From contig CP055307.1 in the NCBI GenBank assembly GCA_013374835.1, forward strand, positions 146,622 to 210,621: 64,000 nt of DNA. The letters are read 5' to 3'. The DNA comes from Candidatus Woesebacteria bacterium. GTDB taxonomy: Bacteria; Patescibacteriota; Microgenomatia; UBA8517. How positions within the stretch are numbered: the first letter of the stretch is position 1; every line of letters begins with the position of its first letter. A program made the translations under genes and the position numbers. The notes under the pieces are model-generated. The model made no database searches and had not been told where the DNA came from. It was given only the letters and a program-made list of their open reading frames with translations. Of the stretch, positions 2,235-38,440 are shown one piece after another.

Positions 2235-2236
2235 TT

Positions 2237-18639: not shown

Positions 18640-19653
18640 ATGAAAATAATCAGAAAAGAAGAAGACGTATCCAATAAAGAAAGCACTTTTTCAAAAAAGA
18701 AAAAGCAAAAAAAGAACCCTTGGGGGAAAAAAGAAAGATTTGTTATTATCGGAATACTTTTTCTAACAGCGTTTTCATCGGCTATTTTGGCAATATCGGC
18801 AAGAAGCTGGAAACTACCCGGATTTCCAAAACTCAAAGCACCGTCTTTTGAATTTGAAAAAACCTACGTTTATGAAAAAGATATAATCAAAAAATCAGAT
18901 GAAAATATCGAAAAAATTAAAGAAATCTTTAAAAAAGAAACAAACAAACTCTCTGGAGTATATGCCTTTGAGGTGGTACTTCTTGATACAAACGTTGTTT
19001 TTGGTGTAAACGAACAAACAAAACTCCAAGCAGCCTCGTTAATTAAGTTACCCGTTATGGCTCTTTTATATGAAAAAGCGCAAACCGGTAGTCTAGATTT
19101 AGATTATACTTACACGCTTAAAAATTCAGATAAAAAAGCTGGATCCGGAAGTCTATATTCTAAGCCAGAAGGAACAAAAATAACATATAGGAATTTAGCT
19201 CAATTAATGGGTAAAGAATCCGATAACACAGCATTTGCTATAGCGGTAGATATTCTTGGCGAAGAAGAAATAGAAAGCTTTATAAAAAGAGTTGGCATGT
19301 ACGAGACTAGTTTAAGCGAAAATACCACAACCCCCTATGATATCGGCATTTTTTTTAAAAAGCTCTGGAGCGGGGATATCCTCAATCATCAATATAAGGA
19401 AGAATTATTAAATTCTCTAACAGATACAATCTACGAAGACTATTTGCCAAAAGGTATTCCTGAAGAAATTGATGTTTCCCACAAATACGGCCGAGAACTT
19501 CATGTGTTAAACGATGCTGGAATCGTCAGAAGTGAGCCCCCATTTGTTTTAGTTTTAATGAGCGAAGGAATCGTTGAATCCGAAGCTGAAAAAATCTTCC
19601 CAATATTATCAAGAAAGCTTTATCAAGAAATTACATCCCTTTATAAAATTTGA
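18640..19653 (+). CDS. Membrane-anchored class A beta-lactamase-like serine hydrolase (PBP-related).
   Basis: SxxK (ASLIKLP), SDN (KESDNTA) and a KTG-like HKYG motif behind an N-terminal TM helix. It is adjacent to two PBP1A genes. Confidence 0.65.
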   Translation: MKIIRKEEDVSNKESTFSKKKKQKKNPWGKKERFVIIGILFLTAFSSAILAISARSWKLPGFPKLKAPSFEFEKTYVYEKDIIKKSDENIEKIKEIFKKETNKLSGVYAFEVVLLDTNVVFGVNEQTKLQAASLIKLPVMALLYEKAQTGSLDLDYTYTLKNSDKKAGSGSLYSKPEGTKITYRNLAQLMGKESDNTAFAIAVDILGEEEIESFIKRVGMYETSLSENTTTPYDIGIFFKKLWSGDILNHQYKEELLNSLTDTIYEDYLPKGIPEEIDVSHKYGRELHVLNDAGIVRSEPPFVLVLMSEGIVESEAEKIFPILSRKLYQEITSLYKI

Positions 19654-21918: not shown

Positions 21919-24171
21919 CTACTTTAGCGGGTAACTAACATTTACGCGATTCATCGGAAAAGGACACGTCAGACATATCATTGTGCCAAGAGGATCATAT
22001 ATTACCAAATGATTTTGCATTTCAATATTTTCAGTCGGAGTATCGGAAGAAGCAAGCGTTTGATTTATTCTATCTATTTGAACATCCTGCCTAGTAGCTA
22101 GATTTTTCTTTGGCAAATTATCTTTAAGAAAATATTCAAATCTTTTTGGACAATCAGCAGATTCGTTTTCGGGTAATCCGCCACTATCGGCACACACGCT
22201 AAGCCCGACAACTTCATCCGGCTTTGTCGGCCAGCCGTGTCCTTTATCCGAAGAATTATAAAATCCTTCTTCTGCTTTATCCAATACCTTTTTCATTATT
22301 CTGTTCCAAATAGGAGAGGCTCCGGATACGCCCGAAACAGCACCGCTCATAGATGTATAGTCGTTGTTTCCCACCCAAGTTAAAACCAAAGCATGTGATG
22401 TGTATCCGACAGTCCAGTTATCTCGAAGATCGTTAGTTGTTCCCGTTTTTACCGAAACCTCGGGATGGCCGCTTACATTAAGATACGAAGAGGCTCCAAA
22501 AGCAGAGGAACGCGCATTGTTGTCGTGAAGGATATGAGAAATTATAAATGCAACACCAGAATTAAGAACCCGTACGCCCTCGGCCTCATCTCTATCATAT
22601 TCAAAAAGTACTTTTCCCTTCCAATCCTCAACTTTAAGGATAGAAACAAGATCTTGTTTTATGCCTTGGTTGGCGAGCACTCCGAACGCAACTGCCATGT
22701 CATAAGGCATCACCTCTCCTCCGCCTAAGGTTAGAGACAGCCCATAATTTTCTGGATCTTTAAAAGTGGTTATGCCCATCTGTGTCGCAAAATCAATAAA
22801 ATTCTCTAAACCGTTAAGCGCAAGCACTCTGACGGCAGGAATGTTATAGGAATTTCCAAGTGCGAATCTTGCTTGTATAGCACCGTGAAATTGCCAGTCA
22901 TAATTTGAAGGACAATAAGGTTTCTGTCCTGCCACTAAAAAACAAGTTGGAACATCTGCAAGTGGTGTGCTGGCAGTTATCTTACCGTCTCTTATGGCCA
23001 GTGCATAATTTAAGGGTTTTATAGAACTTCCGGGTTGTCTTTTTGCGAAAATAATATTTACCTTACCGTCTTCATCCTCTGCGTTATAATTTTTTGAGCC
23101 GACCATAGCAAGTATTTCACCACTTTTAGGTCTTGTTACCAATGCGGCTCCATTACCGACATTTTGATTTTTGAGTTTTTCAACCTCATCGAGCACGATC
23201 TCCTGTGCATACTCTTGTAGCTCAAGATCAAGAGTGGTTGTTACACGAAGCCCCCCTTTCTCAACAACGTTGTCACCATATTCTTTTGCAAGTAATTCTT
23301 TAACCCAAAGCGCAAAATGTGCTGCCTTTAGATCTTTCGCTTCAGCATACTTAAGCTCCTCACTAAGAGCTTGTTCCGCTTCTTCCTCAGTAATATATTT
23401 ATCTTCAACCATCCTTTTTAAAACAAGAGCTTGTCGCTCTTTTGCATATTCGGGATGGGCTCCAAAAGGAGAGTAAAGAGTTGGGGCCGCAGTTAGTCCT
23501 GCTAAAAGTGAAGACTCAGCCAAGGTCAAATCCTCTGCATTTTTGCCGAAATAAAGCTCGGATGCCGACCCGATGCCGTAAGCTGTTGATCCATAAGGGA
23601 CCTGGTTTAAATACATCTCCAATATTTTATCTTTCGGATATCTAAGCTCAACAAGTACGGCCAAAACAAACTCACGGACCTTTCGCTTAATTGTTCTCTC
23701 TGGCGTTAGAAGAGAATTTTTTACAAGCTGCTGCGTAAGAGTGGACCCGCCCTCAAGCTTTTTCCTGAAAATAGTTTTGTATAAAGCTCTGCTCATCCCG
23801 CTAATCGAAAACCCGGGGTGTTTATAAAAATCTTTGTCCTCAATGGCTATCGTGGCTTTTTTAACATGATCGGGAATTCTCTCAAGAGGTATTGGATTTC
23901 TTCTTTGATCGGTATATATTTCATAAATTAATTTCCCTTTTCTGTCATAAAGCTTAGTGGAAATGGCTTGGTCCTTAGAAATATCACCAGTGAAGGGTAT
24001 ACCCCAAAAAAACCACAAACTGAGAATTAAAAAAACAAAAGTTGCCCCTGCAATAACTTTTTTCTTTTTTGAAAGGCTAATTTTTAACAAACGTTTTTTT
24101 TTCTCAAACTGTTGGCCTTGACGCTTTTTGCGCTTCGAATCGGATTTTGTCATGAAGAAATTATACCTCAA
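21919..24171 (-). CDS. Class A penicillin-binding protein (PBP1A family), a paralogue of the previous gene.
   Basis: ATIAIEDKDFYKHPGF, GSSIKPLNY and KTGTTND. The start may be the internal Met at about 24153. Confidence 0.92.
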   Translation of the reverse strand: MRYNFFMTKSDSKRKKRQGQQFEKKKRLLKISLSKKKKVIAGATFVFLILSLWFFWGIPFTGDISKDQAISTKLYDRKGKLIYEIYTDQRRNPIPLERIPDHVKKATIAIEDKDFYKHPGFSISGMSRALYKTIFRKKLEGGSTLTQQLVKNSLLTPERTIKRKVREFVLAVLVELRYPKDKILEMYLNQVPYGSTAYGIGSASELYFGKNAEDLTLAESSLLAGLTAAPTLYSPFGAHPEYAKERQALVLKRMVEDKYITEEEAEQALSEELKYAEAKDLKAAHFALWVKELLAKEYGDNVVEKGGLRVTTTLDLELQEYAQEIVLDEVEKLKNQNVGNGAALVTRPKSGEILAMVGSKNYNAEDEDGKVNIIFAKRQPGSSIKPLNYALAIRDGKITASTPLADVPTCFLVAGQKPYCPSNYDWQFHGAIQARFALGNSYNIPAVRVLALNGLENFIDFATQMGITTFKDPENYGLSLTLGGGEVMPYDMAVAFGVLANQGIKQDLVSILKVEDWKGKVLFEYDRDEAEGVRVLNSGVAFIISHILHDNNARSSAFGASSYLNVSGHPEVSVKTGTTNDLRDNWTVGYTSHALVLTWVGNNDYTSMSGAVSGVSGASPIWNRIMKKVLDKAEEGFYNSSDKGHGWPTKPDEVVGLSVCADSGGLPENESADCPKRFEYFLKDNLPKKNLATRQDVQIDRINQTLASSDTPTENIEMQNHLVIYDPLGTMICLTCPFPMNRVNVSYPLK

Positions 24172-24192: not shown

Positions 24193-24711
24193 TTGTTAAT
24201 ATATAATTTAAGTTCAATGAATACACTAACTTCAAAACCGTGGTGGAATTATTTGCAAAACGATATTAAAGACTTGCTTGGTGAATCCTTTCTCCTTCTT
24301 GAAAAATCCAAAACGTGGAGAAAAAAGTTTCATGACTATTCGTTTGTAGTATTTCCCGCATCCAAAGCCTATGAGGGATTTTTGAAAATATTACTTCTGG
24401 ACATGGGTCTTATTACGAAAAAAGATTATTTCGGCAAGCATTTTCGCATAGGAAAATCTCTTAATCCGAGTCTAGATGTTAAGTATCGAGATGAAAGCTG
24501 GGTATACGACAATCTTGCTAATTTTTGTAAAAGCGAAAAATTGCCCCAAAAATTATGGAAAACATGGAAAACGGCAAGGAATTTAGTCTTTCACTGGTTT
24601 CCGAACGAAGTAAATGCAATTACACTGCCCGAGGCCGAAGACAGAATAAGGCTCATAATAGAATCAATCGATTTAGTCTATACGGAATGTGGTGTAAAAT
24701 TAATTAGATGA
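24193..24711 (+). CDS. Hypothetical protein with a HepT-like HEPN signature (R-N-x3-H-x-F).
   Basis: TARNLVFHWFPNE matches Rx4-6H / RNxxxHxY-like. The predicted protein is about 170 aa, alpha-helical and small. It overlaps the next gene by 4 nt. Confidence 0.35.
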   Translation: MLIYNLSSMNTLTSKPWWNYLQNDIKDLLGESFLLLEKSKTWRKKFHDYSFVVFPASKAYEGFLKILLLDMGLITKKDYFGKHFRIGKSLNPSLDVKYRDESWVYDNLANFCKSEKLPQKLWKTWKTARNLVFHWFPNEVNAITLPEAEDRIRLIIESIDLVYTECGVKLIR

Positions 24712-26077: not shown

Positions 26078-26142
26078 ACACATTTAGTGTTAGAATATTG
26101 TGAATATCACTGGAAATAGTGTTTTTCTATTTCACAAGTGAA
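26078..26142 (+). promoter_or_regulatory. Cluster of CAC/GTG palindromes upstream of nrdR-nrdJ, candidate NrdR boxes and promoter.
   Basis: ACACATTTAGTGT (26078-26090), GTGAATATCAC (26100-26110), CACTGGAAATAGTG (26108-26121) and TTCACAAGTGAA (26131-26142). The 2nd and 4th palindrome centres are about 31.5 bp apart, as in tandem NrdR boxes. A possible promoter is TTGACA at 26070 and TAGAAT at 26091. Confidence 0.45.
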
Positions 26143-26146
26143 ATAT

Positions 26147-26593
26147 ATGAAATGCCCTTTTTGCAATGCAGACGAAACCCACGTACTGGAATCAAGAGCA
26201 ATAGAAGATGGGCGGGTTATAAGAAGAAGGCGGAAATGCATTAAGTGCAAAAAGCGCTTTACAACATACGAAAGCATAAAAAAAAGCGTCCTTTGGGTTG
26301 TCAAAAAGAGTGGTAACAGAGAGCCTTTCGATAAAGAAAAAATTAAAAGAGGTATTTTAAGAGCAATTGAAAAAAGACCTGTATCTCTTGATCTCGTAAA
26401 CGATATCGTAGATCAGGTAGAAAGAGAAATGCTCAAAAAAGAAAAAGAAGAAGTCCCATCCCGCTGGATAGGGAACGAAGTTTTAAAAAGGTTGATAAAA
26501 ATCGACAGAGTAGCCTGGCTTAGATTTGCAAGCGTATATTTGGAGTTTGAGGAACTCAAAGATTTTGAAAACGCAATAATCAAAAAAAAGTAA
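26147..26593 (+). CDS. nrdR: Transcriptional repressor NrdR (zinc ribbon + ATP-cone).
   Basis: MKCPFCNADETHVLESR...CIKCKKRFTTYE followed by an ATP-cone. The ORF track started at an upstream GTG. Confidence 0.93.
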   Translation: MKCPFCNADETHVLESRAIEDGRVIRRRRKCIKCKKRFTTYESIKKSVLWVVKKSGNREPFDKEKIKRGILRAIEKRPVSLDLVNDIVDQVEREMLKKEKEEVPSRWIGNEVLKRLIKIDRVAWLRFASVYLEFEELKDFENAIIKKK

Positions 26594-26594
26594 T

Positions 26595-29045
26595 ATGGTA
26601 ACAAAAAAGAAGCAGCTTAATTTAGAGAGCCTAACATTTCCTTCATATGAGGAAATCAAAACTATAACAGAAAAAAGAGTAGGCAAGATGCCGAAGTTGC
26701 CAAAGGCTCTTCCAAAAGGAGATTGGTCCGAGCAGGCACTAAAAGTGCTGGAAGAAAGATATCTGCAAAGAAATATTAATAACGAAGTGAACGAAACCCC
26801 TGAAGAAATGATCTGGAGAGTTTCCTGGGAAATAGCTTCCGCGGAAGCGATCTGGGGTAAAAAAAGGTCAGAAGTTAGAAACAAAGCAATAGAATTCTAC
26901 AAGCTTCTTATAAGCCGCGAGTTTCTTCCGAATTCGCCAACCCTTATGAACGCCGGTACCGGAAACATGCTTCAATTTTCAGCGTGTTTTGTTCTTCCCG
27001 TAGACGATTCAATGGAGGGAATTTTTGACGCACTCAAATTCCAAGCATTAATACACAAAAGCGGGGGCGGAACCGGCTTTTCCTTCAGCCGCTTAAGACC
27101 TAAAGGATCCTTAGTTAAAAGTAGCAAAGGTACGGCATCGGGTCCAGTTTCGTTTATGAGGGTGTTCGACGCGGCAACGAATGAAGTAAAGCAGGGGGGG
27201 AAAAGAAGGGGGGCAAACATGGGTATCTTAAGAGTTGATCATCCGGACATTTTAGAATTTATCCACTGTAAAGAAGAGGGCGGAATTACAAACTTTAATA
27301 TATCAGTTGCAATTACGGACAAATTTATGGAAGCTTATGAAAAAGACGAAAACTACGACCTTTTAGATCCGAGAACACAAAAAAAGATAGGATCTCTTTC
27401 GGCGCGAAAAGTATTTACACAGATTGCTGAAGCTGCATGGAGAACGGGCGATCCGGGATTAATCTTTATAGATAGGATAAACATGTCCAAAGCAAATCCC
27501 GTACCATCACTTGGTCCTATCGAATCAACTAATCCATGTGGTGAACAGCCTTTATACCCCTTTGACTCCTGCAATCTTGGGAGTATTTTTTTAAGCTATT
27601 TTGTAAAAGAAGATAATAGTGGAGCAAAATCGGTAGATTGGGATAAATTAAAAAAAGTAACAAGACAAGCTGTGAATTTTTTGGACAACGTAATCGAGCT
27701 AAATCCTTATCCACTTGAGGAAATTAGAAGAATTTCCCTTGCAATAAGAAGAATAGGTCTTGGTGTAGGCGGATGGGCTGATATGTTAATCGATTTGGGC
27801 ATACCCTACGATTCTGAGCAAGCTCTCAGACTGGGAGAGAAAATTATGAAAACAATTAGCGAAGAAGCAGTAGCGGCTTCCGAGGATTTGGCTAAAAAAC
27901 GAGGCCCTTTTCCTCTTTGGCCGATTAGTATCTATAAAAACGATAAACCAAGAAGAAATTCAACAGTTACAACAATTGCTCCAACAGGCACAATTTCTAT
28001 AATTGCAGGCACATCAAGTGGTATAGAGCCGATTTTTGCAATAGCATTCCAGCATATTGTAAAAGATAAACATTTAGAAAGAACGCTAAATTTCATAAAT
28101 CCAAAATTCGAAGAAATAGCACGAAAACAGGGGTTTTGGTCCGAAGAAATAGAAAAAAAAGTATCAGAACACGGCACAATTAGAAGTATTGAAGAAATAC
28201 CCGAAGAAGTAAGAAACATATTTGGTACCGCCCACGAAATCCACCACGATTGGCATATAAAAATGCAGTCAGCCTTCCAAAAATATACGGAAAATGCAGT
28301 AAGTAAAACTATAAACCTAAGAAACGAAGTAACTCCTGAAGATGTAAAACAATCTTATGTTCTAGCTTGGAAAACGGGCTGCAGCGGAATCACTGTTTTC
28401 AGAGACGGCTGTAAAAACGCTCAAGTATTAAATCTCGGCATCAAAGAAGAAAAAGAGGGAGAAAAAGGCAATGGAATTATAAAACCAACAGAAGAACGCC
28501 CATTCAAAGTATCAGGTGCCACATACAAACTCAAAACTCCGGTAGGCACGGCCTTTATTACCATAAATGAGGACGACAAAGGCGAACCGATCGAAATATT
28601 TATAAACGTAGGCAAGGCCGGCAGTGATATTACAGCAGTCGCAGAAGCGCTCGGGCGCACGGTTTCAACAGCGCTTAGATTTAAAGGTGTGCTTAGCCCA
28701 AGACAAAGGGCGATAGAAATAGCTAGTCAGCTTTCTGGGATCGGAGGAAGAAGGTCTGTCGGCTTCGGTCCCAACAAAATTCGCTCTCTTCCAGATGCTG
28801 TTGCTGTTGCTCTTTCAAACCATCTTGGTTTTAAGATAAATGGAACTTATCACGAACAGGTAACAGACTCCGAAAAGCTCTATTTGAACAACAAAGAAGG
28901 TCAAGCATATAATTTTACTCAAACACAAGCTGCTTTGGAAATTGTATCGATTAAAGCGGATATTTGCCCTGTTTGTGGAGCAAACGCTTTAGTTTATGAA
29001 GAAGGGTGTGAAAAATGTCACGTCTGTGGTTATTCGGAATGTTAA
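26595..29045 (+). CDS. nrdJ: Class II (adenosylcobalamin-dependent) ribonucleotide reductase.
   Basis: 816 aa with LMNAGTGNMLQFSACFVLPVDDSMEGIF, NPCGEQPL and a C-terminal Cys zinc finger (CPVCG...CEKCHVCG). Confidence 0.9.
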   Translation: MVTKKKQLNLESLTFPSYEEIKTITEKRVGKMPKLPKALPKGDWSEQALKVLEERYLQRNINNEVNETPEEMIWRVSWEIASAEAIWGKKRSEVRNKAIEFYKLLISREFLPNSPTLMNAGTGNMLQFSACFVLPVDDSMEGIFDALKFQALIHKSGGGTGFSFSRLRPKGSLVKSSKGTASGPVSFMRVFDAATNEVKQGGKRRGANMGILRVDHPDILEFIHCKEEGGITNFNISVAITDKFMEAYEKDENYDLLDPRTQKKIGSLSARKVFTQIAEAAWRTGDPGLIFIDRINMSKANPVPSLGPIESTNPCGEQPLYPFDSCNLGSIFLSYFVKEDNSGAKSVDWDKLKKVTRQAVNFLDNVIELNPYPLEEIRRISLAIRRIGLGVGGWADMLIDLGIPYDSEQALRLGEKIMKTISEEAVAASEDLAKKRGPFPLWPISIYKNDKPRRNSTVTTIAPTGTISIIAGTSSGIEPIFAIAFQHIVKDKHLERTLNFINPKFEEIARKQGFWSEEIEKKVSEHGTIRSIEEIPEEVRNIFGTAHEIHHDWHIKMQSAFQKYTENAVSKTINLRNEVTPEDVKQSYVLAWKTGCSGITVFRDGCKNAQVLNLGIKEEKEGEKGNGIIKPTEERPFKVSGATYKLKTPVGTAFITINEDDKGEPIEIFINVGKAGSDITAVAEALGRTVSTALRFKGVLSPRQRAIEIASQLSGIGGRRSVGFGPNKIRSLPDAVAVALSNHLGFKINGTYHEQVTDSEKLYLNNKEGQAYNFTQTQAALEIVSIKADICPVCGANALVYEEGCEKCHVCGYSEC

Positions 29046-29049
29046 TTAT

Positions 29050-29589
29050 ATGTCTATCTACACCAAAAAGGGGGACAAAGGAACAACATCGCTTTTTAAC
29101 CCCGCACTTTACAAAGAAAAAAGAATTCCAAAAAGTGCCCAAAGAATAAGAGTAATAGGCGAAATAGATGAACTAAATAGCTTTCTTGGTATTATTTCAT
29201 CCAAAATTAGAAATAAAGATACTAAAAAATTTATTATCAAAATTCAAAAAAATTTATTTACCATAAACGCTGTTATTGCAGGTGCCAAATTGTCTTTCAA
29301 AAACGAAGAAACAAAGTTTTTGGAAAAAAAGATTGACAAAATCGAAAAATTGCTTCCGCCGCTCAAAAATTTCATAATACCGGGCGGAGACACTCTGGCC
29401 AGCGAAGTTATGTACGCTCGCACAATAGCAAGAAGGGCAGAAAGAGAGCTTGTTGCTTTGAGCAAAAAGGAAAAAGTCAAACCAAGCCTGCTCAAATACA
29501 TTAACAGACTTTCTGACGCTCTCTTTATGGTCTCAAGAAACATAAATTTTGCAAAAGGCAAAAAAGAGACTCCTTGGAAGCCTCGCTAA
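29050..29589 (+). CDS. PduO-type ATP:cob(I)alamin adenosyltransferase.
   Basis: MSIYTKKGDKGTTSL matches the PduO consensus YTRTGDKGTTSL. About 180 aa. It makes functional sense next to the B12-dependent RNR. Confidence 0.85.
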   Translation: MSIYTKKGDKGTTSLFNPALYKEKRIPKSAQRIRVIGEIDELNSFLGIISSKIRNKDTKKFIIKIQKNLFTINAVIAGAKLSFKNEETKFLEKKIDKIEKLLPPLKNFIIPGGDTLASEVMYARTIARRAERELVALSKKEKVKPSLLKYINRLSDALFMVSRNINFAKGKKETPWKPR

Positions 29590-29608
29590 AGGTGTTAAAA
29601 TAAGCTAT

Positions 29609-29944
29609 ATGGTTGTACCCCCCGAGAAGGAATCGGTTCTAAAAGAATTTGAAATACCCGACGAGCCTGAAATTGGCGAAGGCGCAAGAGAAGCGGGTGT
29701 TTCTGTGCGTCCAGTGTATCCCAGGGTGCCTCCACCTCTTACGCCAAGTAGCGGAGCAACGACCCTTCAAAGAAGAGAAAAAAATGTTCGAAGCGTTGAA
29801 TTTGCTTATCCACAAAATGTATATGAAGATATGTCAAAAGGTTCAGCGTCTGATTCTAAGACCTGGTACGGTGTATTTAATTTAAGAAGAATCAAAAAAG
29901 CACTATTAAAAGGTTTAAGAGTAATTTTAAAAGCAGAAAAATGA
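29609..29944 (+). CDS. Hypothetical Pro-rich small protein in a locally GC-rich segment. The coding status is uncertain.
   Basis: About 50% GC versus about 36% in the flanks, with two overlapping ORFs in different frames (29549..29944 and 29649..29885). Confidence 0.3.
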   Translation: MVVPPEKESVLKEFEIPDEPEIGEGAREAGVSVRPVYPRVPPPLTPSSGATTLQRREKNVRSVEFAYPQNVYEDMSKGSASDSKTWYGVFNLRRIKKALLKGLRVILKAEK

Positions 29945-32283
29945 ATACTTCCACACTCACCCAAAGCATTACAGTTTTTTTCATCTTTTTGTTTTTGTTG
30001 ACATTTTTTTTCATTTTATTTGGCTTTATTGCTTGGTCAATAGCTCTTTATTATCGGCAAAAAGAAAGAGAAAAAAAGTCTCTTGAAGCAGTTCTTCTTC
30101 AGGTTGCCACTCCTAGAGGAAATGAAATAAAGCCGGACGCAATGGAGCAGTTAATAGGGGCTCTCCATTCTATAAAAAAAAGTGGTTGGAAAACACGAAT
30201 CTATGGCCAACCATGTATATCTTTTGAAATAGTAGCCAAACGGGAGGACATTAGATTTTATGTTTGGACGTTTAAAAACCAAAAAGATCTTTTAGAAAAA
30301 CAAATCCACGGCGCTTATCCCGATGCACAAATAACAGAAGTTCCCGAATACAATATATTTTCAGAAAACGGAAAGGTGGCATATAAAGCACTTCAATTAA
30401 AAAAAGATAATTTTTATCCGATAAAGACATTTAAAGAACTGCCCACAGATCCGCTCGCATCAATCACTTCTTCTCTGGCAAAAATGGGGGAAAATGAAGC
30501 CGCATCAATTCAAATCCTTATTTCTCCCGTCGATTCGTCCTGGCAAACCCAAGGCAAAAATTACATTTCACAAACAAAAAAACAGGAATCCGATCCAGAA
30601 AAAGCAAAATATTCTGTGCCAGTCAAAACCCTAGAGGCTGTAGAGAATAAAATCTCAAAGCCCGGCTTTGAGGTTTCAATTAGGCTGGTAGTGGTTTCGG
30701 AAACAGAGGATTCCGCTAAGGCGCACCTAGGAAATGTAGTAAGCGCTTTTTCACAATTCGATGGAGACTTAAACGGCTTTGGTTCAAGAAAAATAAGAAA
30801 CAAAGGGGCATTTATCGAAGATTTTATTTACAGATATCACCCCCTTTTCCATTTTGGCAAAAATAGAATATCAATCCTAAACGCGGAAGAAATCGCCACA
30901 ATTTTTCATTTTCCAAACAAACTTATAACAACACCGCATATCTACTGGCTTAACGCAAAGCGCGCTCCGGCACCAGCAGAAATACCTACACAAGGACTCT
31001 ATCTTGGCATAAGTAGCTATAGAGGCGTAAAACGTGAAGTCTTCATTTCGGATCCGGATAGATTAAGGCACATGTATATAATTGGACGCACAGGTACGGG
31101 TAAATCCGAGTTTCTCAAAAACATGATCAGGCAGGATATAAACGAAGGAAAGGGTTTGTGTTTTATGGATCCTCACGGAGATGCAGTAGAAGACATTCTA
31201 AATTTTATCCCACCAGAACGCGCAGAAGACGTTATTTATTTTCGCCCGTCCGACTCAGAAAGACCAATGGGACTAAATCTTCTGGAAGCTAAAACAGAAG
31301 ACCAGCAGCATTTTGCAGCAACAGCGGTTATTAATATGATGTACAAGCTCTTTGATCCCTACAAAACCGGAATAGTAGGTCCTAGATTTGAACATGGTGT
31401 AAGAAATGCAATGCTTACAGTAATGCAGGGAATGGAAGGGGGAACATTTATAGAAGTAATGAAAGTAATGACAAACTCACGTTTTGTCCAGGAACTTTTG
31501 CCGAGAGTTAAGGATCCAATAGTCAGAAGTTATTGGCAAGACCAAATTGCTCAAACTTCAGATTTTCATAAATCCGAAGTTCTTGACTATACTGTTTCTA
31601 AATTTGGCCGCTTCGTGACAAACAGAATGGTACGCAACATAATCGGTCAATCAAAATCTTCCTTCTCATTTAGAGACATAATGGATAACGGCAAAATCCT
31701 GCTTATCAACCTTTCCAAGGGAGAGCTGGGCGAGGAAAACAGTAGCTTTCTGGGTCTGGTTCTTGTACCAAGAATACTTATGGCCGCTATGAGTCGATCG
31801 GATATTCCTGAAGAAAATAGGCGTGACTTTTATCTTTATGTAGACGAGTTTCAGAATTTTGCAACGCCCGATTTTGCTCAGATTTTATCCGAGGCAAGAA
31901 AATACAAGTTAAGCTTGACTGTTGCAAACCAATTCATAGGTCAAGTTGATGAGGAGGTAAAAAACGCTGTATTTGGAAACGTTGGAACCCTAATTTCATT
32001 TAGAGTTGGGGTTAATGACGCAAACTACTTAACCCACGAATTTAGCCCTGTTTTTGGCGAAGATGATCTCTTAAACATTGAGCGCTATCATGCTTTTGTC
32101 AAAACAATTGTTAACAACGAACCCGTACCTCCTTTTTCAATGGATACAACAATGAATTTGGAAGAAATCGCAAAAAAAAGAAACATCAAAGTAGCCGAAG
32201 TTATCAAAGAAATGAGCAGACTAAAATACGGTAAGGATGTAAGGTTGGTAGAATCGGAAATAAATTCAAGAGCAAAGCTTTAA
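29941..32283 (+). CDS. Membrane-anchored HerA/FtsK-superfamily P-loop ATPase (DUF87 / VirB4-VirD4-TraD-like conjugation-type ATPase).
   Basis: N-terminal hydrophobic hairpin. Walker A GRTGTGKSEF is followed by CFMDPHGD (the DPHGE motif of the HerA/VirB4 family), and Walker B is LYVDEFQNF. The 330-aa N-terminal domain is of unknown type. Confidence 0.65.
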   Translation: MNTSTLTQSITVFFIFLFLLTFFFILFGFIAWSIALYYRQKEREKKSLEAVLLQVATPRGNEIKPDAMEQLIGALHSIKKSGWKTRIYGQPCISFEIVAKREDIRFYVWTFKNQKDLLEKQIHGAYPDAQITEVPEYNIFSENGKVAYKALQLKKDNFYPIKTFKELPTDPLASITSSLAKMGENEAASIQILISPVDSSWQTQGKNYISQTKKQESDPEKAKYSVPVKTLEAVENKISKPGFEVSIRLVVVSETEDSAKAHLGNVVSAFSQFDGDLNGFGSRKIRNKGAFIEDFIYRYHPLFHFGKNRISILNAEEIATIFHFPNKLITTPHIYWLNAKRAPAPAEIPTQGLYLGISSYRGVKREVFISDPDRLRHMYIIGRTGTGKSEFLKNMIRQDINEGKGLCFMDPHGDAVEDILNFIPPERAEDVIYFRPSDSERPMGLNLLEAKTEDQQHFAATAVINMMYKLFDPYKTGIVGPRFEHGVRNAMLTVMQGMEGGTFIEVMKVMTNSRFVQELLPRVKDPIVRSYWQDQIAQTSDFHKSEVLDYTVSKFGRFVTNRMVRNIIGQSKSSFSFRDIMDNGKILLINLSKGELGEENSSFLGLVLVPRILMAAMSRSDIPEENRRDFYLYVDEFQNFATPDFAQILSEARKYKLSLTVANQFIGQVDEEVKNAVFGNVGTLISFRVGVNDANYLTHEFSPVFGEDDLLNIERYHAFVKTIVNNEPVPPFSMDTTMNLEEIAKKRNIKVAEVIKEMSRLKYGKDVRLVESEINSRAKL

Positions 32284-32310
32284 AAATTTTGCTAAAATAC
32301 CCTAAGTTTA

Positions 32311-32383
32311 GGATGCGTAGCTCAGTGGTTAGAGCACCGATCTTATAAGTCGGGGGTCGATGGTTCAAATCCATCCGCATCCA
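32311..32383 (+). tRNA. tRNA-Ile with anticodon UAU (TAT).
   Basis: Manual fold: acceptor GGATGCG/CGCATCC, D-arm GCTC-AGTGGTTA-GAGC, anticodon stem CCGAT/GTCGG with loop CTTATAA (U33, anticodon TAT, A37), T-arm GATGG-TTCAAAT-CCATC, discriminator A. Confidence 0.8.
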
Positions 32384-32429
32384 CCCTATAAGCCTCGGAA
32401 TTGAAAGAACATGCTAGCTTGATTATATA

Positions 32430-32681
32430 ATGGTGATTAAACTCCAAAGATCGTTTCTTGATTTAAACTACAATTATTCAATGCCAAATAGAAAATCGAG
32501 GCCTTTAGGTAGATCGAGAAGTACTTGTTATTTGAGCGTGGTATGCCCAAACAATATCAGAAATATTGTTTGGGATTATCTTGCATCAGGCACTCTCGAC
32601 ACTGATACAAGATTGTCCCTGCATTCAGAAGAAAACTTTGCCGATGCTTTGGAAAAGATGAATATCCTGAAGAATATATAA
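32430..32681 (+). CDS. Doubtful small ORF (83 aa) between tRNA-Ile and the recombinase. It may be non-coding and could contain an att-like region.
   Basis: Odd composition (S/R/N/C-rich) and no recognisable motif. Confidence 0.15.
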   Translation: MVIKLQRSFLDLNYNYSMPNRKSRPLGRSRSTCYLSVVCPNNIRNIVWDYLASGTLDTDTRLSLHSEENFADALEKMNILKNI

Positions 32682-32691
32682 CAAAACCATT

Positions 32692-33555
32692 TTAGAGCTC
32701 CTCAAGCTGCTGCTTTTTTCCGGGTTCTTTAATTTCGGCAAGCTCCAAATAACGCTCTGTAGTAGAAAGTCTCTTATGTCCTACAGCGTGAGATATGGTT
32801 ACCAGGTCGACATTTCTTTTAAGATTCTCAACTATAAAAGTAGTTCTAAGATCATTAACGGAATATTCCGGTATTTCGGCCTTTTGCATATACCTATCAA
32901 TTGCAGCACGTATATTTCGAACAGCTAAAGGCTTCCCGTTTTTGCTGACAAAAAGATATTCGGACTTAGTGTTCGGCCTTATTCTTATATATTCTTCAAT
33001 TGCAACCAAGGCGGCTCTGTTAAGTTGTACCGTCCTTTCGGGTTGTGTGGCGTAGGATTCAATAACTACGCGATCCTTTTTGATATTGTTAAACTTTAGA
33101 TTCGCAACCTCGGAAATTCTCATTCCCGTCTGGAGAATAAGCTCAACAATAGCGGCAATTCTGGGATCCGTTCTAACAACGTCTCTTAGAGCCCTATACT
33201 CAAGTTGAGACAAAAATTTTGGCAAAGAAGTCTTAATTTTAGGGTGGTCAACATCTTGTGAAGGATCGCTCGAAATAATTTTTTTATCCTTAATCCATCT
33301 AAAAAAGGTTTTTATCGCATTAAGCTTTCTGGATACGGTTTTGGGAGTGTATTTTTGATTCAATAGAAAATCGCGAAATCCCTCAAGATCACCTTGCTTA
33401 ATGTGGCTTGGGAGGACCTTGTTGTGTTGTGCAAGAAAGTCAACAAGCTGCTCAAGATCAGATTTATAGGCTAAAATCGTAGAAGGTGAACGGCCTTTTT
33501 CCTTTAAATCATCTATGAATTTTGGCAGAAGAGATTTTAGCGATTCCTCATTCAT
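32692..33555 (-). CDS. Tyrosine site-specific recombinase (XerC/XerD-like or integrase).
   Basis: N-terminal SAM-like domain (TILAYKSDLEQLVDFL); catalytic GMRISE (Arg) and HAVGHKRLSTTERYL (H-x-x-R ... Y). Confidence 0.85.
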   Translation of the reverse strand: MNEESLKSLLPKFIDDLKEKGRSPSTILAYKSDLEQLVDFLAQHNKVLPSHIKQGDLEGFRDFLLNQKYTPKTVSRKLNAIKTFFRWIKDKKIISSDPSQDVDHPKIKTSLPKFLSQLEYRALRDVVRTDPRIAAIVELILQTGMRISEVANLKFNNIKKDRVVIESYATQPERTVQLNRAALVAIEEYIRIRPNTKSEYLFVSKNGKPLAVRNIRAAIDRYMQKAEIPEYSVNDLRTTFIVENLKRNVDLVTISHAVGHKRLSTTERYLELAEIKEPGKKQQLEEL

Positions 33556-33665
33556 TTTAATTCTTATTTTATTTGTCTATCTATAATAACACAAATGTCA
33601 TTTCCGTCAATATTATAAGATACATTTTGGGCCTCAATTTGTGATTCAAACTCGATTAATCTAAG

Positions 33666-34052
33666 ATGTGTTATATGAATTATCTTTTTTCAAAACTCGG
33701 CTCGTTTCGCAAGGTTGTTTTTTTTCTTCTTGCTGTTTTTTTGGCACTATCCCTAGTTAGAAATATTCAAAAGATCCGTAAAGCAAACGAAAAAATCGAT
33801 AACGCAGAAAAAAAACTTGAAGATTTAAACAAAGAAAGTCTGCTGTTGCAAAAAAAGCTTAAAGAAGTGGAAAGCACTAATTTTATAGAAAAAGAAGCCC
33901 GAGATAAGCTCGGATTGGCAAAAGAGGGAGAAATCGTTTTAATTCTTCCTGAAGATGAAGTTCTTAGAAAACTTTCACCCAAGGAGGGAAGTGAAGAAGA
34001 AATTTTGCTCACAGAAGAAAACTGGAAAGAATGGTTTAAACTTTTTTTCTAG
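33666..34052 (+). CDS. ftsB: Septum formation initiator (FtsB/DivIC family).
   Basis: TM helix plus coiled coil with IEKEARDKLGLAKEGEIVLILPED, the classic FtsB/DivIC motif. Confidence 0.75.
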   Translation: MCYMNYLFSKLGSFRKVVFFLLAVFLALSLVRNIQKIRKANEKIDNAEKKLEDLNKESLLLQKKLKEVESTNFIEKEARDKLGLAKEGEIVLILPEDEVLRKLSPKEGSEEEILLTEENWKEWFKLFF

Positions 34053-34063
34053 AACGCATTTAT

Positions 34064-34092
34064 TTGAATCACAAGGGTATAATTGATATAGT
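34064..34092 (+). promoter_or_regulatory. Possible promoter for the tRNA pair (TTGAAT, 17 nt spacer, TATAGT).
   Basis: TTGAAT at 34064-34069 and TATAGT at 34087-34092, 9 nt upstream of the tRNA. Confidence 0.3.
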
Positions 34093-34101
34093 ATCAATAC
34101 G

Positions 34102-34171
34102 TGCGGGGTAGTGTAGGGTTGCACGGAAGGCTCATAATCTTCCAGACCGGGTTCAACTCCCGGCCCCGCAA
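34102..34171 (+). tRNA. tRNA with anticodon CAU (Met elongator, or Ile2 if lysidinylated).
   Basis: Manual fold: acceptor TGCGGGG/CCCCGCA, anticodon stem GAAGG/TCTTC with loop CTCATAA, T-arm CCGGG-TTCAACT-CCCGG. The D-loop and variable loop are short, and pair 1-72 is U-A. Confidence 0.6.
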
Positions 34172-34206
34172 CAAGATAGCGCTAATAGCCAGCAAGTTTA
34201 GTATAG

Positions 34207-34279
34207 GCCAGGGTAGCTCAGTCGGCAGAGCACAGGATTCATAAACCTGCGGTCGTGGGTTCGATCCCCACCCCTGGTA
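34207..34279 (+). tRNA. tRNA with anticodon CAU (Met, fMet or Ile2 cannot be distinguished).
   Basis: Manual fold: acceptor GCCAGGG/CCCTGGT (G1-U72), D-arm GCTC-AGTCGGCA-GAGC, anticodon loop TTCATAA, T-arm GTGGG-TTCGATC-CCCAC, discriminator A followed by CC. Confidence 0.7.
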
Positions 34280-34282
34280 CCG

Positions 34283-35287
34283 ATGAATAAAACGAGAGTA
34301 CTTGCTGGTATGAGATCAAGCGGCAGGCTTCATTTAGGCAACTATTTAGGCGCGGCCAAAGGTATGATTGCACTTCAAAACAAGAATAATAACGAGTGTT
34401 TCTATATGGTTGCTGATCTTCATACTATGACCACACCCTTTGATAAAAAGACCATAAGAGCTCAAAGCATAGACGTGATTCTAGATTACCTTGCAGCAGG
34501 CCTGGATCCGAACAAATCAACTATTTTCATCCAATCGGAAGTCCCTGAGCACATAGAGCTCTCCTTTTATTTTTCAACTGTCGTTTCATTGGCAAAGATG
34601 ACGCACCTACCTACGTTTAAAGAAAAGGTGCGCGAAAATCCGGATTTCGTATCCATAGCGCTTGTTAATTACCCCGTCCTTATGGCAGCGGATATTCTAA
34701 TTTATAAAGCGGAACTAGTGCCTGTCGGTATTGACCAAGAACCCCATCTTGAAGTAGCACGCGACATAGCCAAAAAGATGAATGGGACTTTTGGTACAAA
34801 TTTCCCCGAGCCCAAAAGATTTACCACAAAAGGCGAATATATCCCCAGCCTGACCGGTGAGGGTAAAATGAGCAAATCAATAGAAGGTAGTTATATCCTC
34901 CTGACAGATAATTACGAACAAATTAAAAGTCGTTTGGCAAAAGTGCCTACAGATAGCGGAAGAGGAAACAAGATTCCTGAAAGTGGTGGAGTGGCGGTTC
35001 TTTTTAAAGCTGTCGAAATTTTTGAAGGTAAAGAAAAAGCTGAAGAATATAAAAAAGCATATCTTGGTAAAGGGATTCAATATAAAAATCTTAAAGAAAA
35101 TCTCGCCAAAGCAATCTATTCTGAGCTCAAGCCAATTCAAGAGAAAAGAAAAAAACTGGAAAAAAATACAGATTATGTTGAACAAATTTTAGTTAGCGGT
35201 GCCCAAAAAGCACGTACCGAAGCACAAAAAACCATCTCGGAAGTACGGTCCAAACTGGGTCTAAATCCTTCTGGTGTTTTATCATGA
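34283..35287 (+). CDS. trpS: Tryptophanyl-tRNA synthetase.
   Basis: HLGN (HIGH-type) and KMSKS motifs; class I Trp/Tyr-RS size (334 aa). Confidence 0.9.
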   Translation: MNKTRVLAGMRSSGRLHLGNYLGAAKGMIALQNKNNNECFYMVADLHTMTTPFDKKTIRAQSIDVILDYLAAGLDPNKSTIFIQSEVPEHIELSFYFSTVVSLAKMTHLPTFKEKVRENPDFVSIALVNYPVLMAADILIYKAELVPVGIDQEPHLEVARDIAKKMNGTFGTNFPEPKRFTTKGEYIPSLTGEGKMSKSIEGSYILLTDNYEQIKSRLAKVPTDSGRGNKIPESGGVAVLFKAVEIFEGKEKAEEYKKAYLGKGIQYKNLKENLAKAIYSELKPIQEKRKKLEKNTDYVEQILVSGAQKARTEAQKTISEVRSKLGLNPSGVLS

Positions 35288-35631
35288 TATCAATCAAAGA
35301 TTTTCAAAAACTGGATTTAAGGATCGGAACGGTAATCAAAGCAGAAGTGCCCTCCTGGAGCCATTGGGTAACCAAACTTACGGTTGATTTTGGACAAGAA
35401 GTGGGTAAAAAAACCATCTTTGCAGGAATAATGCATTTTTACAAACCGAAAGATTTGGAAAAAAAGCAGCTACCCTTCCTTATCAACATAGAGCCCAAAA
35501 AAATTGGCCCCGAAGGTGATTTTTCTGAAGGAATGCTCCTTGCGGCAACACACAAACTCAAAACCCCAATGGAAAAGCCGACCCTTCTTGTAGTAGAATC
35601 AAAAGTTCCAAACGGCACCAAAATTAGGTAA
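35284..35631 (+). CDS. tRNA-binding domain protein (EMAP/Myf/CsaA-like, PF01588).
   Basis: DLRIGTVIKAE motif of the OB-fold tRNA-binding domain. It overlaps trpS by 4 nt. Confidence 0.75.
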   Translation: MISIKDFQKLDLRIGTVIKAEVPSWSHWVTKLTVDFGQEVGKKTIFAGIMHFYKPKDLEKKQLPFLINIEPKKIGPEGDFSEGMLLAATHKLKTPMEKPTLLVVESKVPNGTKIR

Positions 35632-35681
35632 ATAAAAGATTGGCAATCCGAGAATCTGAGTGATATAATCCCTCATAGCTT

Positions 35682-37517
35682 ATGAAAAATAAAAAGAAAG
35701 TCGAGCTTAAATTCAAATTCAATCTGGGCAAAATAATAATTGTCGCACTTTTAATTCTTTTTATCGCACCCTTTTTCCTTGCACTGCTTCAAGAAGGGAT
35801 AGACCAGGGTAAAATCGACGTCTCTCAAGGCTTAAGCGATATCAAAAACGGTCTTATTGAAGAAGTCGAAGTCGAAGATGAAAGATTAACTTTCAAATAC
35901 AAAAACGAAGATGTAAAAATAGCCATAAAAGAAAGCGGGATAAGCTTTCCTGAGCTTCTTGAAGCCTATCAGATTGATCCGGCTACGATAAGTTATCGCG
36001 TCGTAGATAACACTCTGATTCGTCTGGTAGGGGAAATTGCAAGCATCCTGCTTCCTTTAATCTTAATGGCTGCCTTTTTTTATTTTTTAATAAAAATGCA
36101 AAGCCGTGGAGCCCAGGATATTTTTTCGTTTGGTCGAAGTAAGGCGAGACTGTTTGCAAAAGGAAAACAATCGGTTAATTTCGCCGATGTAGCAGGAGTT
36201 GATGATGCTAAAAAAGAGCTGGAGGAAGTAGTGGATTTTCTAAAAAATCCTGTTAAATATAGAAAAATAGGCGCAAGAACGCCAAAGGGTGTGATTCTGG
36301 TTGGCCCTGCGGGTGTCGGTAAAACCCTTCTTGCAAAAGCAGTTGCAGGAGAAGCCGGAGTCCCGTTTTTTTCAATGGCTGGATCCGAGTTTATGGAAAT
36401 GCTCGTTGGAGTAGGTGCAAGCCGTGTCCGCGACCTTTTTGCAAACGCAAAGGCAGCAGCCCCGTCAATAATTTTTATAGATGAAATAGATGCAATAGGT
36501 CGCCAGAGAGGAAGGGGAATCATGGGAGGTCACGACGAGCGCGAGCAGACGCTAAACCAAATTCTCGTTGAAATGGATGGATTCACACCCAACGACAATG
36601 TTATCGTTCTAGCAGCCACAAATAGGGGAGATCTTTTAGATCCGGCACTACTAAGACCCGGTAGGTTTGACAGAAGGGTATTGCTAGATATGCCGGATAA
36701 AGAAGGAAGAGTGGCTATTCTTAAAATTCATGCCAAAGGTAAAAAGTTCAAAAAATCTATAGATTGGGAAAAAGTTGCAGACAGAACAGTGGGCTTTTCA
36801 GGAGCCGATCTAGAAAACATGCTTAACGAAGCAGCAATTCTTGCAGCAAGAGAGGACAAAAAAGAAATAGCTCTCGAAGACATAGAGGAAGCGGCAACTA
36901 AAGTAAAGCTCGGTCCTGCCAAAAAGAGACTTCAGTCAGAAGAGGATAGGAAAATTACGGCGTATCACGAGGGAGGACACGCAATTACAGCTCATTTTCT
37001 TGAAAAGACAGATCCGGTCCAAAGAGTATCTATTGTCGCAAGAGGAGCAAGTCTTGGCCACACTTTTATTCCGCCGGCAGCGGACAGGACACACGAGACC
37101 CGTTCTCGACTAAAAGAGCAAATAACCGCAATGCTTGGTGGACGGGCTGCGGAAGAGCTAATTTTTGGTGAAATGACGGCCGGAGCGGCAAACGATATAG
37201 AAAAAGCTACCGAGCTCGCACGCGCCATGGTGATAGAACTCGGCATGAGCTCCCTTGGTCCTATTAATTTTTCGACCCAGCTTGACGAAGAGTCTCAAAA
37301 AAGATTATTTATGGGAGAAAATGTAGTCTCCGAAGATACTCAAAAACAAATAGACAAAGAAATTAGATTACTTATGAACCAAGCATATAAAAAAGCCCTT
37401 GAAATAATTAAGAAAAACAAAAAGACTCTCGACATTATTGCAAAAGAGCTTCTGGAAAAAGAAACCCTATCTCGCGAAGAGTTTGAGCGCATAGTTGGCA
37501 GAAAAAAAAGATTATGA
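35682..37517 (+). CDS. ftsH: ATP-dependent zinc metalloprotease FtsH.
   Basis: AAA module [23 protein letters not shown] and the zinc site HEGGHA. Confidence 0.95.
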
Positions 37518-38440
37518 AAAAGCTCGTGCTTATAGATGGAAATGCGATTATGCATAGAGCATTCCACGCGCTTCCGCCGCTAACTACCCCCAAAAACGAA
37601 CCCATTGGAGCGGTCTATGGCTTTACATCAATGCTTCTGAAGGTAATCGAAGACCTAAACCCCGATTATATTTTCGTTTGTTTTGATAGAAAAGAACCGA
37701 CATTTAGAAAAAAACTTAGCAAAGATTATCAGGCTCATCGCCCCGAAACAGACACAAATTTGATACCTCAATTTACAAAGGTAAAACATCTTCTCAAAGC
37801 TTTAAATATTCCCGTTTACGAAAAAAAAGGGTTCGAAGCAGACGACCTTATCGGCACCATTTCCCACTCCGTTATTAGTCATCGATCATTAGCCATCAGT
37901 CATCAGTTAATCGATGAGGTTATAGTTGTCACCGGCGACCGCGACCTTCTTCAGCTTGTGAACGATAAAGTTAAAGTTTATCTCCCCATAAAGGGATTGT
38001 CACAAGCAAAGCTGATGGATAAAAAAGATGTGTTTAAGATGTTTGGGGTTACCCCCAAACAAGTTGTTGATTATAAAGCCTTGATCGGAGACCAGTCGGA
38101 CAACTACAAAGGAGTAGGTGGCATAGGCCCGAAAATAGCCTCAAATCTACTTCAAAAATACAACTCGCTGGAAAATATTTATGAACATTTAGATGAATTA
38201 CCAAAAGGTATTAAACAAAAGCTTAAAAAAGATAAAAATTCGGCATTGCTTTCCCAAAAACTTGCGCAAATTGTGAATGATGTACCAATCAAAATAAAAA
38301 AATTCCAAAAATGGGATCCATGTTCTTCCGATGTTAAAAAAATCCTAGACGAATTTGGTTTTAAAACGCTTGAGCAAAGAATATCAAAACTGTCAAAAAA
38401 GCAAATCTCAGAAAATCAAAAAAAACTTTTTAATATCTAA
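37514..38440 (+). CDS. Stand-alone 5'-3' exonuclease (Pol I N-terminal / FEN-like nuclease domain + H3TH).
   Basis: LIDGNAIMHRAFHALPP, GFEADDLIGT and TGDRDLLQLV. It is 308 aa with no polymerase domain. Confidence 0.85.
   Translation: MKKLVLIDGNAIMHRAFHALPPLTTPKNEPIGAVYGFTSMLLKVIEDLNPDYIFVCFDRKEPTFRKKLSKDYQAHRPETDTNLIPQFTKVKHLLKALNIPVYEKKGFEADDLIGTISHSVISHRSLAISHQLIDEVIVVTGDRDLLQLVNDKVKVYLPIKGLSQAKLMDKKDVFKMFGVTPKQVVDYKALIGDQSDNYKGVGGIGPKIASNLLQKYNSLENIYEHLDELPKGIKQKLKKDKNSALLSQKLAQIVNDVPIKIKKFQKWDPCSSDVKKILDEFGFKTLEQRISKLSKKQISENQKKLFNI

Follow-up and report, generated by a model that had tools for sequence, protein, structure and literature searches.

Positions 32311-32383 on the plus strand of a 64,000-nucleotide (nt) stretch of the Candidatus Woesebacteria contig CP055307.1, hereafter referred to as the window (i.e., the whole stretch of DNA that was analysed), hold a gene for a tRNA-Ile with the anticodon UAU. 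The gene was called by ARAGORN (tRNA-Ile, anticodon tat at position 34, 32311-32385, plus strand) and by the Rfam model RF00005 (32311-32383, plus strand), which it matches over model positions 1-71 of 71 with 75.2 bits (gathering score 29; E = 1.2e-14 for the whole 64-kb window). An identical copy in a related genome, L119, and covariation across the tRNA family further back the call. An original prediction, made from the bare sequence, had placed a canonically folding tRNA with the anticodon loop CUUAUAA at exactly these coordinates, and both programs bear it out.

As read from the sequence, the acceptor stem is formed by GGAUGCG and CGCAUCC in seven Watson-Crick pairs, the D stem is GCUC/GAGC with G18-G19 in its loop, and the anticodon stem CCGAU/GUCGG, which includes U31.G39, closes a 7-nt loop of C32 U33 U34 A35 U36 A37 A38. 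The variable loop is GGGUC, the T arm is GAUGG-UUCAAAU-CCAUC, and the discriminator base is A73. An intron is absent from the gene, and CCA is not encoded at the 3' end, where the following bases are CCC. Another register of the anticodon loop, e.g., one of 9 nt, had been raised as a possible objection; no alternative register is possible in this cloverleaf. BLAST against annotated E. coli genomes gave tRNA-Val as the best match, via generic tRNA similarity, so that this comparison is uninformative on isotype and ancestry. The D arm GCUCAGUGGUUAGAGCA, together with A26 and A73, presumably resembles those of E. coli tRNA-Ile2. Of the features considered for isoleucine identity, the window tRNA has A73, A37, A38, U12-A23, and A3-U70, the last of which is a pointer to Ile rather than Met (PMC1635315). 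Some identity elements for E. coli IleRS, namely C4-G69 and C29-G41, are absent from it, with U4-A69 and G29-C41 in their place.

The same 73 nt are found, letter for letter, in L119 (DCTW01000007.1; related loci are referred to by L numbers), a metagenome-assembled genome (MAG) of Candidatus Woesebacteria bacterium UBA1430. L119 is collinear with window positions 30380-38096 at 92-95% identity, and the source of the window is thus a close relative of UBA1430. Because this independent MAG carries the same 73 nt, T34 is not a sequencing or assembly error.

Distribution and conservation of the gene

A scan of one genome per GTDB species with the pattern GCTCAGTGGTTAGAGCA-N5-CTTATAA matched at least 119 loci, i.e., the tRNA-Ile(UAU) pattern is present in at least 119 species-representative genomes, overwhelmingly of Patescibacteria, the Candidate Phyla Radiation (CPR). 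The groups among the matches listed are Magasanik-, Falkow-, Parcu-, Pacei-, Sacchari-, Woese-, Shapiro-, Gottesman-, Roizman-, Curtiss-, Kerfeld-, Berkel-, and Peribacteria; outside the CPR, the matches listed comprise four records of the Planctomycetes-Verrucomicrobia-Chlamydiae (PVC) group, with a G+C content (GC) of 53-59%, and one DPANN archaeon. Twenty-five of the records listed are labelled 'uncultured Gammaproteobacteria'. Their GC is 32-46%, and in many of them the neighbouring proteins are 50-87% identical to Magasanikbacteria loci, which together indicate that they are mislabelled CPR MAGs. Records entitled 'MAG TPA_asm: uncultured Gammaproteobacteria' with a CPR-type tRNA-Ile(UAU) include L008, L009, L015, L017, L029, L030, L074, L076, and L100. 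Of the 119 loci listed, 113 have an intact tRNA-Ile(tat) by ARAGORN, which called 92 more in metagenome loci.

Covariation was assessed in 129 distinct sequences that share the architecture of the window tRNA. All 21 stem pairs are Watson-Crick or G-U in 94-100% of the sequences, with up to five pair types per position: pair 5-68, for example, occurs as CG (69 sequences), GC (33), AU (16), and UA (9), and pair 31-39 as UA (48), CG (37), GC (24), UG (16), and AU (4). A73 is present in 129 of 129. The invariance of the D arm and anticodon loop is a product of the search pattern; the covariation of the acceptor stem, the anticodon stem, and, in the genome loci, the T stem is independent of it. 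Abundant compensatory changes combined with an invariant A73 are the signature of an old, functional, and vertically inherited tRNA.

The anticodon itself was followed in 241 million metagenome records, in which the conserved tRNA body (D arm, loop, variable loop, and T arm) was found 96 times with T34 and 0 times with C34, so that the anticodon is fixed and has not recently switched to or from CAU. In L127 and L150, a tRNA-Ile(GAU) gene lies beside the UAU gene, and the two agree at 47 of 74 positions, a value to be read against the 39-40 of 74 between either of them and the initiator tRNA, which is little lower. With this identity, the CPR gene is not a recent G34-to-U derivative of tRNA-Ile(GAU). 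Comparison across the CPR thus shows a cloverleaf that is under purifying selection, with its anticodon fixed as UAU, and the gene in the window is very probably a functional, vertically inherited tRNA-Ile(UAU) of the Candidatus Woesebacteria chromosome. No observation speaks against a functional tRNA-Ile that decodes AUA. The original prediction had called a UAU anticodon unusual in bacteria; this holds for classical taxa and fails for the CPR lineage, as at least 119 species genomes, almost all of them Patescibacteria, and 96 metagenome contigs have the same tRNA type. Such a tRNA is rare in textbook bacteria and is the normal, conserved arrangement in the CPR.

Several variant arrangements were observed among the related loci. 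In L067 (CAYOFO010000018.1, minus strand) and L105 (CAZHNI010000011.1, plus strand from about 3222), about 150 nt are inserted into the tRNA-Ile(UAU) directly behind A38. Within this insert lies a complete second tRNA-Ile(UAU), and after the insert the outer 3' half (…TATAAGGCAGGGGTCGAT…) resumes, so that one tRNA is nested inside the anticodon loop of the same isoacceptor. The gene of L038, from a Pacearchaeota archaeon, is interrupted behind position 38 by an ordinary intron of some 59 nt. A partial 5' duplicate lies 25 nt upstream of the intact gene in L099, and in L046 (Akkermansia-labelled) and L088 (Pirellulales) the 5' half alone was found within 260 nt.

Neighbouring genes and chromosomal setting

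The tRNA is preceded by a gene for a VirD4/TraG-like P-loop ATPase at 29941-32283 on the plus strand (Pfam TrwB_AAD_bind and TraG-D_C), which ends 27 nt before it. The NCBIfam matches of this protein to conjugative coupling proteins are weak and sub-threshold. No promoter-like site was found in the 27-nt gap, and the order VirD4-like gene to tRNA recurs in L016, L047, L094, L101, and L111 (labelled Gottesman-, Shapiro-, and Curtissbacteria, among others). As the VirD4-like gene is a conserved neighbour, the tRNA probably shares a transcript with it or is read from a start inside the 3' end of that gene. On the other side, a Xer-like tyrosine recombinase is encoded at 32692-33555 on the minus strand (Pfam Phage_integrase and a SAM-like N domain); it scores about 156 bits with the XerC, XerD, and XerA models, below their cut-offs, and is also present in L119. 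The ftsH gene follows at 35682-37517 on the plus strand (Pfam AAA and Peptidase_M41), 3.3 kb downstream of the tRNA. In the 216 sequences examined (215 loci and the window), ftsH adjoins the tRNA-Ile(UAU) in 40, often with the tRNA starting less than 150 bp after ftsH. This linkage was seen across CPR classes, e.g., in L041, L044, L054, L063, L081, and L104, usually with tRNA-Val(GAC) next.

ARAGORN found three tRNAs in the 64-kb window in all, namely, the tRNA-Ile(UAU) and two plus-strand tRNAs with a CAU anticodon, which were classed by the criteria of Silva et al. 2006 (PMC1635315). The 70-nt gene at 34102-34171 (Rfam 55.7 bits) is of the initiator type. It bears the marks G2-C3/G70-C71, A29G30G31/U39C40U41, and U1-A72, a documented variant of the initiator C1xA72 mismatch (PMC1635315). 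Atypical features are U11-A24 in place of A11-U24, a D loop that is very short, and a single G-C among the pairs 29-41, 30-40, and 31-39. The gene is conserved in L119 and L204, where the anticodon stem shows compensatory changes. The gene at 34207-34279 (Rfam 65 bits) is of the elongator tRNA-Met type, with the acceptor GCCAGGG, C3-G70, A4-U69, the loop UUCAUAA, and no C4-G69/C5-G68; it shares its acceptor type, GGC(A/U)GGG, with CAU tRNAs of other Microgenomates-type loci, in L004, L094, L083, L096, L107, and L204. By these features, neither gene appears to be a tRNA-Ile2. Taken with 19 from related loci, 21 CAU tRNAs were classed, all as initiator or elongator Met tRNAs save that of L068, which was left unassigned, and none of the 21 looks like the UAU gene with a CAU anticodon. 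The two CAU tRNAs of the window are 35 bp apart (34172-34206), compared with about 263 bp in UBA1430 (L119 3849-4110), and this difference is the sole indel in the otherwise collinear 7.7-kb alignment of L119 and the window.

The window is part of the cellular chromosome of Candidatus Woesebacteria (Microgenomates, CPR) and belongs to neither a phage nor an organelle; a megablast search of positions 30000-36000 against a phage collection gave no match. GC is 36-40% throughout, without a break in composition near the tRNA. The genes encode GroES/GroEL, two class A penicillin-binding proteins, NrdR, a class II ribonucleotide reductase, a PduO-type adenosyltransferase, DivIC, TrpRS, FtsH, a stand-alone 5'-3' exonuclease, RecF, Fpg, an ATP-dependent DNA ligase, and peptidyl-tRNA hydrolase, together with a glycolysis and pentose-phosphate block, and this content is CPR-like. 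The two penicillin-binding proteins are tandem paralogues (19641-21827 and 21919-24171, both on the minus strand) with transglycosylase and transpeptidase domains, and their genes share a 179-nt stretch at 70% identity. At 26138-29589 on the plus strand, NrdR, the class II (B12-dependent) ribonucleotide reductase with a TSCPD domain, and the PduO-type cobalamin adenosyltransferase are clustered, a grouping which suggests that the organism depends on cobalamin that it scavenges. Three genes of a mobile or toxin-like kind lie scattered in the window and have no relation to the tRNA: an insertion sequence-type rve integrase/transposase (5283-6245, minus strand), a protein with a weak RnlA/RNase LS-like HEPN toxin domain (24193-24711, plus strand), and a Fic-domain protein with a DeoR helix-turn-helix (43289-44356, plus strand). 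Open reading frames (ORFs) of 131-447 amino acids (aa) without a Pfam match lie at 49738-51081, 971-1780, 6790-7503, 14163-15053, 53195-53734, and 29549-29944.

AUA decoding and alternative explanations

In 60 non-overlapping ORFs of the window, ATA makes up 618 of 18,955 codons, i.e., 32.6 per 1000, and 39% of the isoleucine codons. A use of more than 10 AUA per 1000 codons has been classed as 'high', with Borrelia burgdorferi at 39 per 1000 (PMC12514573); the window falls in this class, near B. burgdorferi. The heavy AUA usage named in the original prediction was found; the genome, which the prediction called AT-rich, is only moderately so at the GC given above. To assess the meaning of the codon, FtsH, the VirD4-like protein, and TrpRS of the window were aligned with those of related loci (26 sequences for FtsH), and codons were tallied by column. 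ATA columns hold 34% ATT/ATC and 3.1% ATG, and ATT columns similarly hold 43% ATT/ATC and 2.5% ATG; in ATG columns, ATG reaches 37%. AUA thus behaves as isoleucine, like AUU/AUC and unlike AUG. Exchanges of ATA between the window and the 95%-identical L119 were too few to use (GTA 7, ACA 3, ATG 3, ATY 2).

These tallies bear on the idea that the code has changed, with AUA read as another amino acid (e.g., Met, as in many mitochondria) and the tRNA charged accordingly. Reassignment of AUA exists in organelles, and some CPR (SR1, Gracilibacteria) have an altered UGA code. In the window, however, ATA is substituted like ATT/ATC and not like ATG, all three stop codons serve as stops in the 60 genes, and A73 and A37/A38 match tRNA-Ile; a changed code is scarcely credible and, at the level of comparative genomics, can be regarded as already refuted. 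The UAU gene could also be an artefact or pseudogene, i.e., a gene for tRNA-Ile2(CAU) or tRNA-Met in which C34 was misread as T or has mutated to it, as a single base separates CAU from UAU. Against this stand the identical sequence in an independent assembly, about 205 further UAU genes in other genomes and contigs, the exclusive T34 on the tRNA body, the perfect cloverleaf with its high Rfam score, and A3-U70, an Ile rather than a Met discriminator (PMC1635315). The cross-genome data already refute such an artefact, which is left with a negligible chance. The setting of the gene, between a VirD4/TraG-like gene and a tyrosine recombinase, raises the further question of horizontal acquisition, with the tRNA as the cargo or the target of a mobile element: domains of a conjugation-like and an integrase-like kind are encoded next to it, and tRNA genes are common integration sites. 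A role as attachment site of an integrative element was examined and rejected. The 22-nt 3' end of the tRNA occurs once in the 64 kb with up to three mismatches allowed, and thus is not duplicated, no att-like direct repeats were found in 20-45 kb, and the region is collinear with UBA1430. Moreover, composition is flat across the region, the order VirD4-like gene to tRNA is kept in five other Microgenomates-type loci, the tRNA body is of the standard CPR type, and the conjugative and Xer models score far under their curated cut-offs. Given the lack of repeats and the conserved synteny, there is no sign of recent horizontal acquisition, and the mobile-element explanation seems largely refuted and is very improbable.

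The question of whether tRNA-Ile(UAU) is the only AUA decoder depends on TilS, which supplies the lysidine of tRNA-Ile2(CAU). No PP-loop protein or TilS was found in the window by a check of its ORFs and a TilS profile search, and the window likewise lacks tRNA-Ile(GAU), tRNA-Ile2(CAU), IleRS, and MnmE/G/A. A hidden Markov model (HMM) built from 120 TilS sequences was run unfiltered over all six-frame segments of the 215 loci (1.44 Mb); L210 was the sole match, and the next best had E = 0.48. The classic position of tilS is upstream of ftsH, as in the Bacillota contigs L216 and L217; about 16 of the CPR loci extend more than 2 kb to that side of ftsH, and no tilS was found there.

L210 (= L218, JGI Ga0209121_10020508, 4350 bp) would at face value wrongly point to a CPR TilS, in an operon of tilS, hpt, ftsH, and tRNA-Ile(UAU), and was rejected as an assembly chimera. 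Its TilS scores above both cut-offs (TIGR02432 166.7 bits, cut-off 93.6; TIGR02433 44.7 bits, cut-off 20.2), and its named relatives are from Erysipelotrichaceae. Bases 1-3043 (28.9% GC) are 97% identical to the independently assembled L216 and L217, in which the context is Bacillota-like (phosphotransferase system, BglG antiterminator, ROK, lactate dehydrogenase, GGDEF, and MreB) and the FtsH gene (666 aa) is followed by a GGDEF gene and no tRNA. Bases 3044-4350 (1307 bp, 37.4% GC) are collinear with CPR loci holding the end of ftsH and the tRNA, and the join lies inside a conserved part of ftsH.

The charging and modifying enzymes were also sought. No IleRS gene was found in the window or in any related locus; large ORFs with KMSKS motifs that adjoin the tRNA were considered and rejected, being ValRS or LeuRS. 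Some of the adjoining ValRS genes have large insertions (L207, 1219 aa; L133, 1017 aa; L175, 970 aa), with a histidine-phosphatase-like RHG…N motif (…IIVLRHGQAESN…) in the insert of L207 and repetitive KHENTKTQKH-type inserts in L175. The sole RNA methylase in the window, a SpoU-family protein at 62008-62538 on the minus strand, was rejected as TrmL (28.6 bits, cut-off 190.6); it reaches none of the cut-offs, and the models that it partially matches best are those of RlmB and TrmH.

Two accounts of AUA decoding can be weighed on this basis, namely, that tRNA-Ile(UAU) is the sole AUA decoder in a lineage without the TilS/tRNA-Ile2(CAU) pair, or that it is redundant and supplements such a pair encoded elsewhere in the genome. 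Nearly all classical bacteria have tilS, and the GTDB bac120 marker set includes TIGR02432, both of which favour redundancy. Several points weigh against a sole decoder. Only 64 kb of a genome of about 1 Mb is visible, and the absence of TilS from the window and from the 1.44 Mb is weak evidence for TilS-independence: this sequence clusters at one locus, and even if it were random, about 1.5-1.8 tilS genes would be expected, with P(0) of about 0.2. Coexistence of tilS and tRNA-Ile(UAU), a 'transition state', is documented in Lactobacillus casei, L. plantarum, Cyanothece 7424, and Ferrimonas (PMC3575796), so that a UAU gene alone does not imply loss of tilS. On the other side, TilS was found neither in the window nor in the CPR loci searched, nor upstream of ftsH; the CAU tRNAs near the UAU gene are, save for L068, of the initiator and elongator-Met types; C34 never occurs on the tRNA body; and redundancy would be unexpected in genomes of about 1 Mb. 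A redundant decoder is thus possible and rather unlikely, whereas a sole decoder is the account that is probably, by a modest measure, correct.

In the proposed mechanism, U34 of the tRNA-Ile(UAU) would pair directly with the A of AUA, so that this tRNA would need no conversion of cytidine to lysidine, and A37 would presumably carry N6-threonylcarbamoyladenosine (t6A), as in other tRNAs that read ANN codons. IleRS would have to accept UAU. It would be either an enzyme of the IleRS2 type or, following the example of Mycoplasma mobile, an IleRS1 in which the residue that contacts the wobble base is altered. The M. mobile tRNA has an unmodified U34 and t6A at position 37, and the M. mobile IleRS accepts UAU via Arg865, an ability that the E. 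coli enzyme gains with W905R (PMC3575796). IleRS2 occurs in about half of bacteria (bioRxiv 10.64898/2026.02.03.703510), and Bifidobacterium and Neorickettsia combine a UAU tRNA with an IleRS2-type enzyme (PMC3575796). Misreading of AUG would presumably be kept low by an unmodified or specially modified U34, competition from tRNA-Met, and possibly properties of the ribosome, for which M. mobile and Bacillus subtilis provide precedents. Binding to AUG is prevented by the M. mobile ribosome and not by that of E. coli (PMC3575796), and in B. subtilis lacking tilS by deletion, growth was near-normal with a suppressor tRNA whose UAU anticodon has an unmodified U34 and which bound AUA strongly and AUG weakly (PMC3919564).

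Significance and comparison with known AUA-decoding systems

For the window itself the finding matters little, as the gene is the expected CPR decoder of AUA and is predictable by standard tRNA finders; the lineage-wide pattern would be of more interest if the absence of TilS were confirmed. A search of the open-access literature, to which subscription literature and database annotations did not belong, found nothing that links CPR or Patescibacteria with lysidine, TilS, or AUA decoding. What goes beyond the literature searched is the scale, i.e., more than a hundred species from most of the CPR classes, compared with the nine species in three clades that were known in 2013 to combine a TAT gene with the absence of tilS (PMC3575796). 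Tentatively, the CPR as a whole, to which much of bacterial diversity belongs, may decode AUA by an encoded tRNA-Ile(UAU) without TilS and tRNA-Ile2(CAU), and would then be by far the largest lysidine-free bacterial clade, although this is somewhat less likely than not to hold throughout.

TilS is treated as an essential and near-universal bacterial enzyme and as a possible antibacterial target, and how decoding of AUA by lysidine first evolved is an open question. If the CPR are lysidine-free, the conservation of UAU, its distance from tRNA-Ile(GAU), and the absence of C34 would fit two histories, namely, I) retention of the UAU state of a pre-TilS ancestor, as proposed by Taniguchi et al. 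(PMC3575796), or II) a single ancient replacement at the base of the CPR. Without tilS in the CPR, 'universal' marker sets that include TilS would mis-score the completeness of CPR genomes, a huge natural sample would be available for the adaptation of IleRS and the ribosome to UAU, and the timing of the origin of TilS relative to the CPR split would become testable.

The comparisons drawn in the original prediction, with M. mobile, with lysidine and TilS, and with archaeal agmatidine, are correct according to the literature. The canonical bacterial tRNA-Ile2(CAU)/TilS system performs the same task, i.e., reading AUA as Ile; unlike it, the gene has T34 in both the window and L119, and C34 was never seen on the tRNA body (0 versus 96). 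Lactobacillus casei and L. plantarum, Cyanothece PCC 7424, and Ferrimonas balearica have a bacterial UAU gene like that of the window, but with tilS in addition, whereas no TilS or CAU-type Ile tRNA was detected in the CPR sequences examined, which makes for a weak distinction. The same decoding solution is found in other domains. Nanoarchaeum equitans and Korarchaeum use a tRNA-Ile(UAU) without TiaS (PMC3919564), and the eukaryotic cytosolic tRNA-Ile(UAU) needs pseudouridine at positions 34 and 36 and an intron (PMC8007984), unlike the intronless gene of the window.

In its sequence, the gene corresponds to an AUA decoder of the M. mobile type. With the tRNA-Ile2(UAU) of M. mobile (PMC3575796) it shares the encoded UAU, the 7-nt loop, A37, AUA-rich genes, and a decoding mode for which lysidine would not be needed. 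Experiments on M. mobile have shown that tilS is absent, that IleRS has R865, that U34 is unmodified, and that the ribosome discriminates; for the window tRNA, such features would be predictions. The M. mobile gene is moreover a recent, lineage-specific replacement that is reported to resemble tRNA-Ile(GAU) (PMC1635315); the CPR gene is old and radiation-wide and only 64% identical to the neighbouring tRNA-Ile(GAU). Bifidobacterium and Neorickettsia, which have a UAU decoder without tilS and an IleRS2 of the eukaryote/archaeal type, would be a plausible model if the CPR use IleRS2, with the difference that they are isolated genera and the CPR is a whole radiation.

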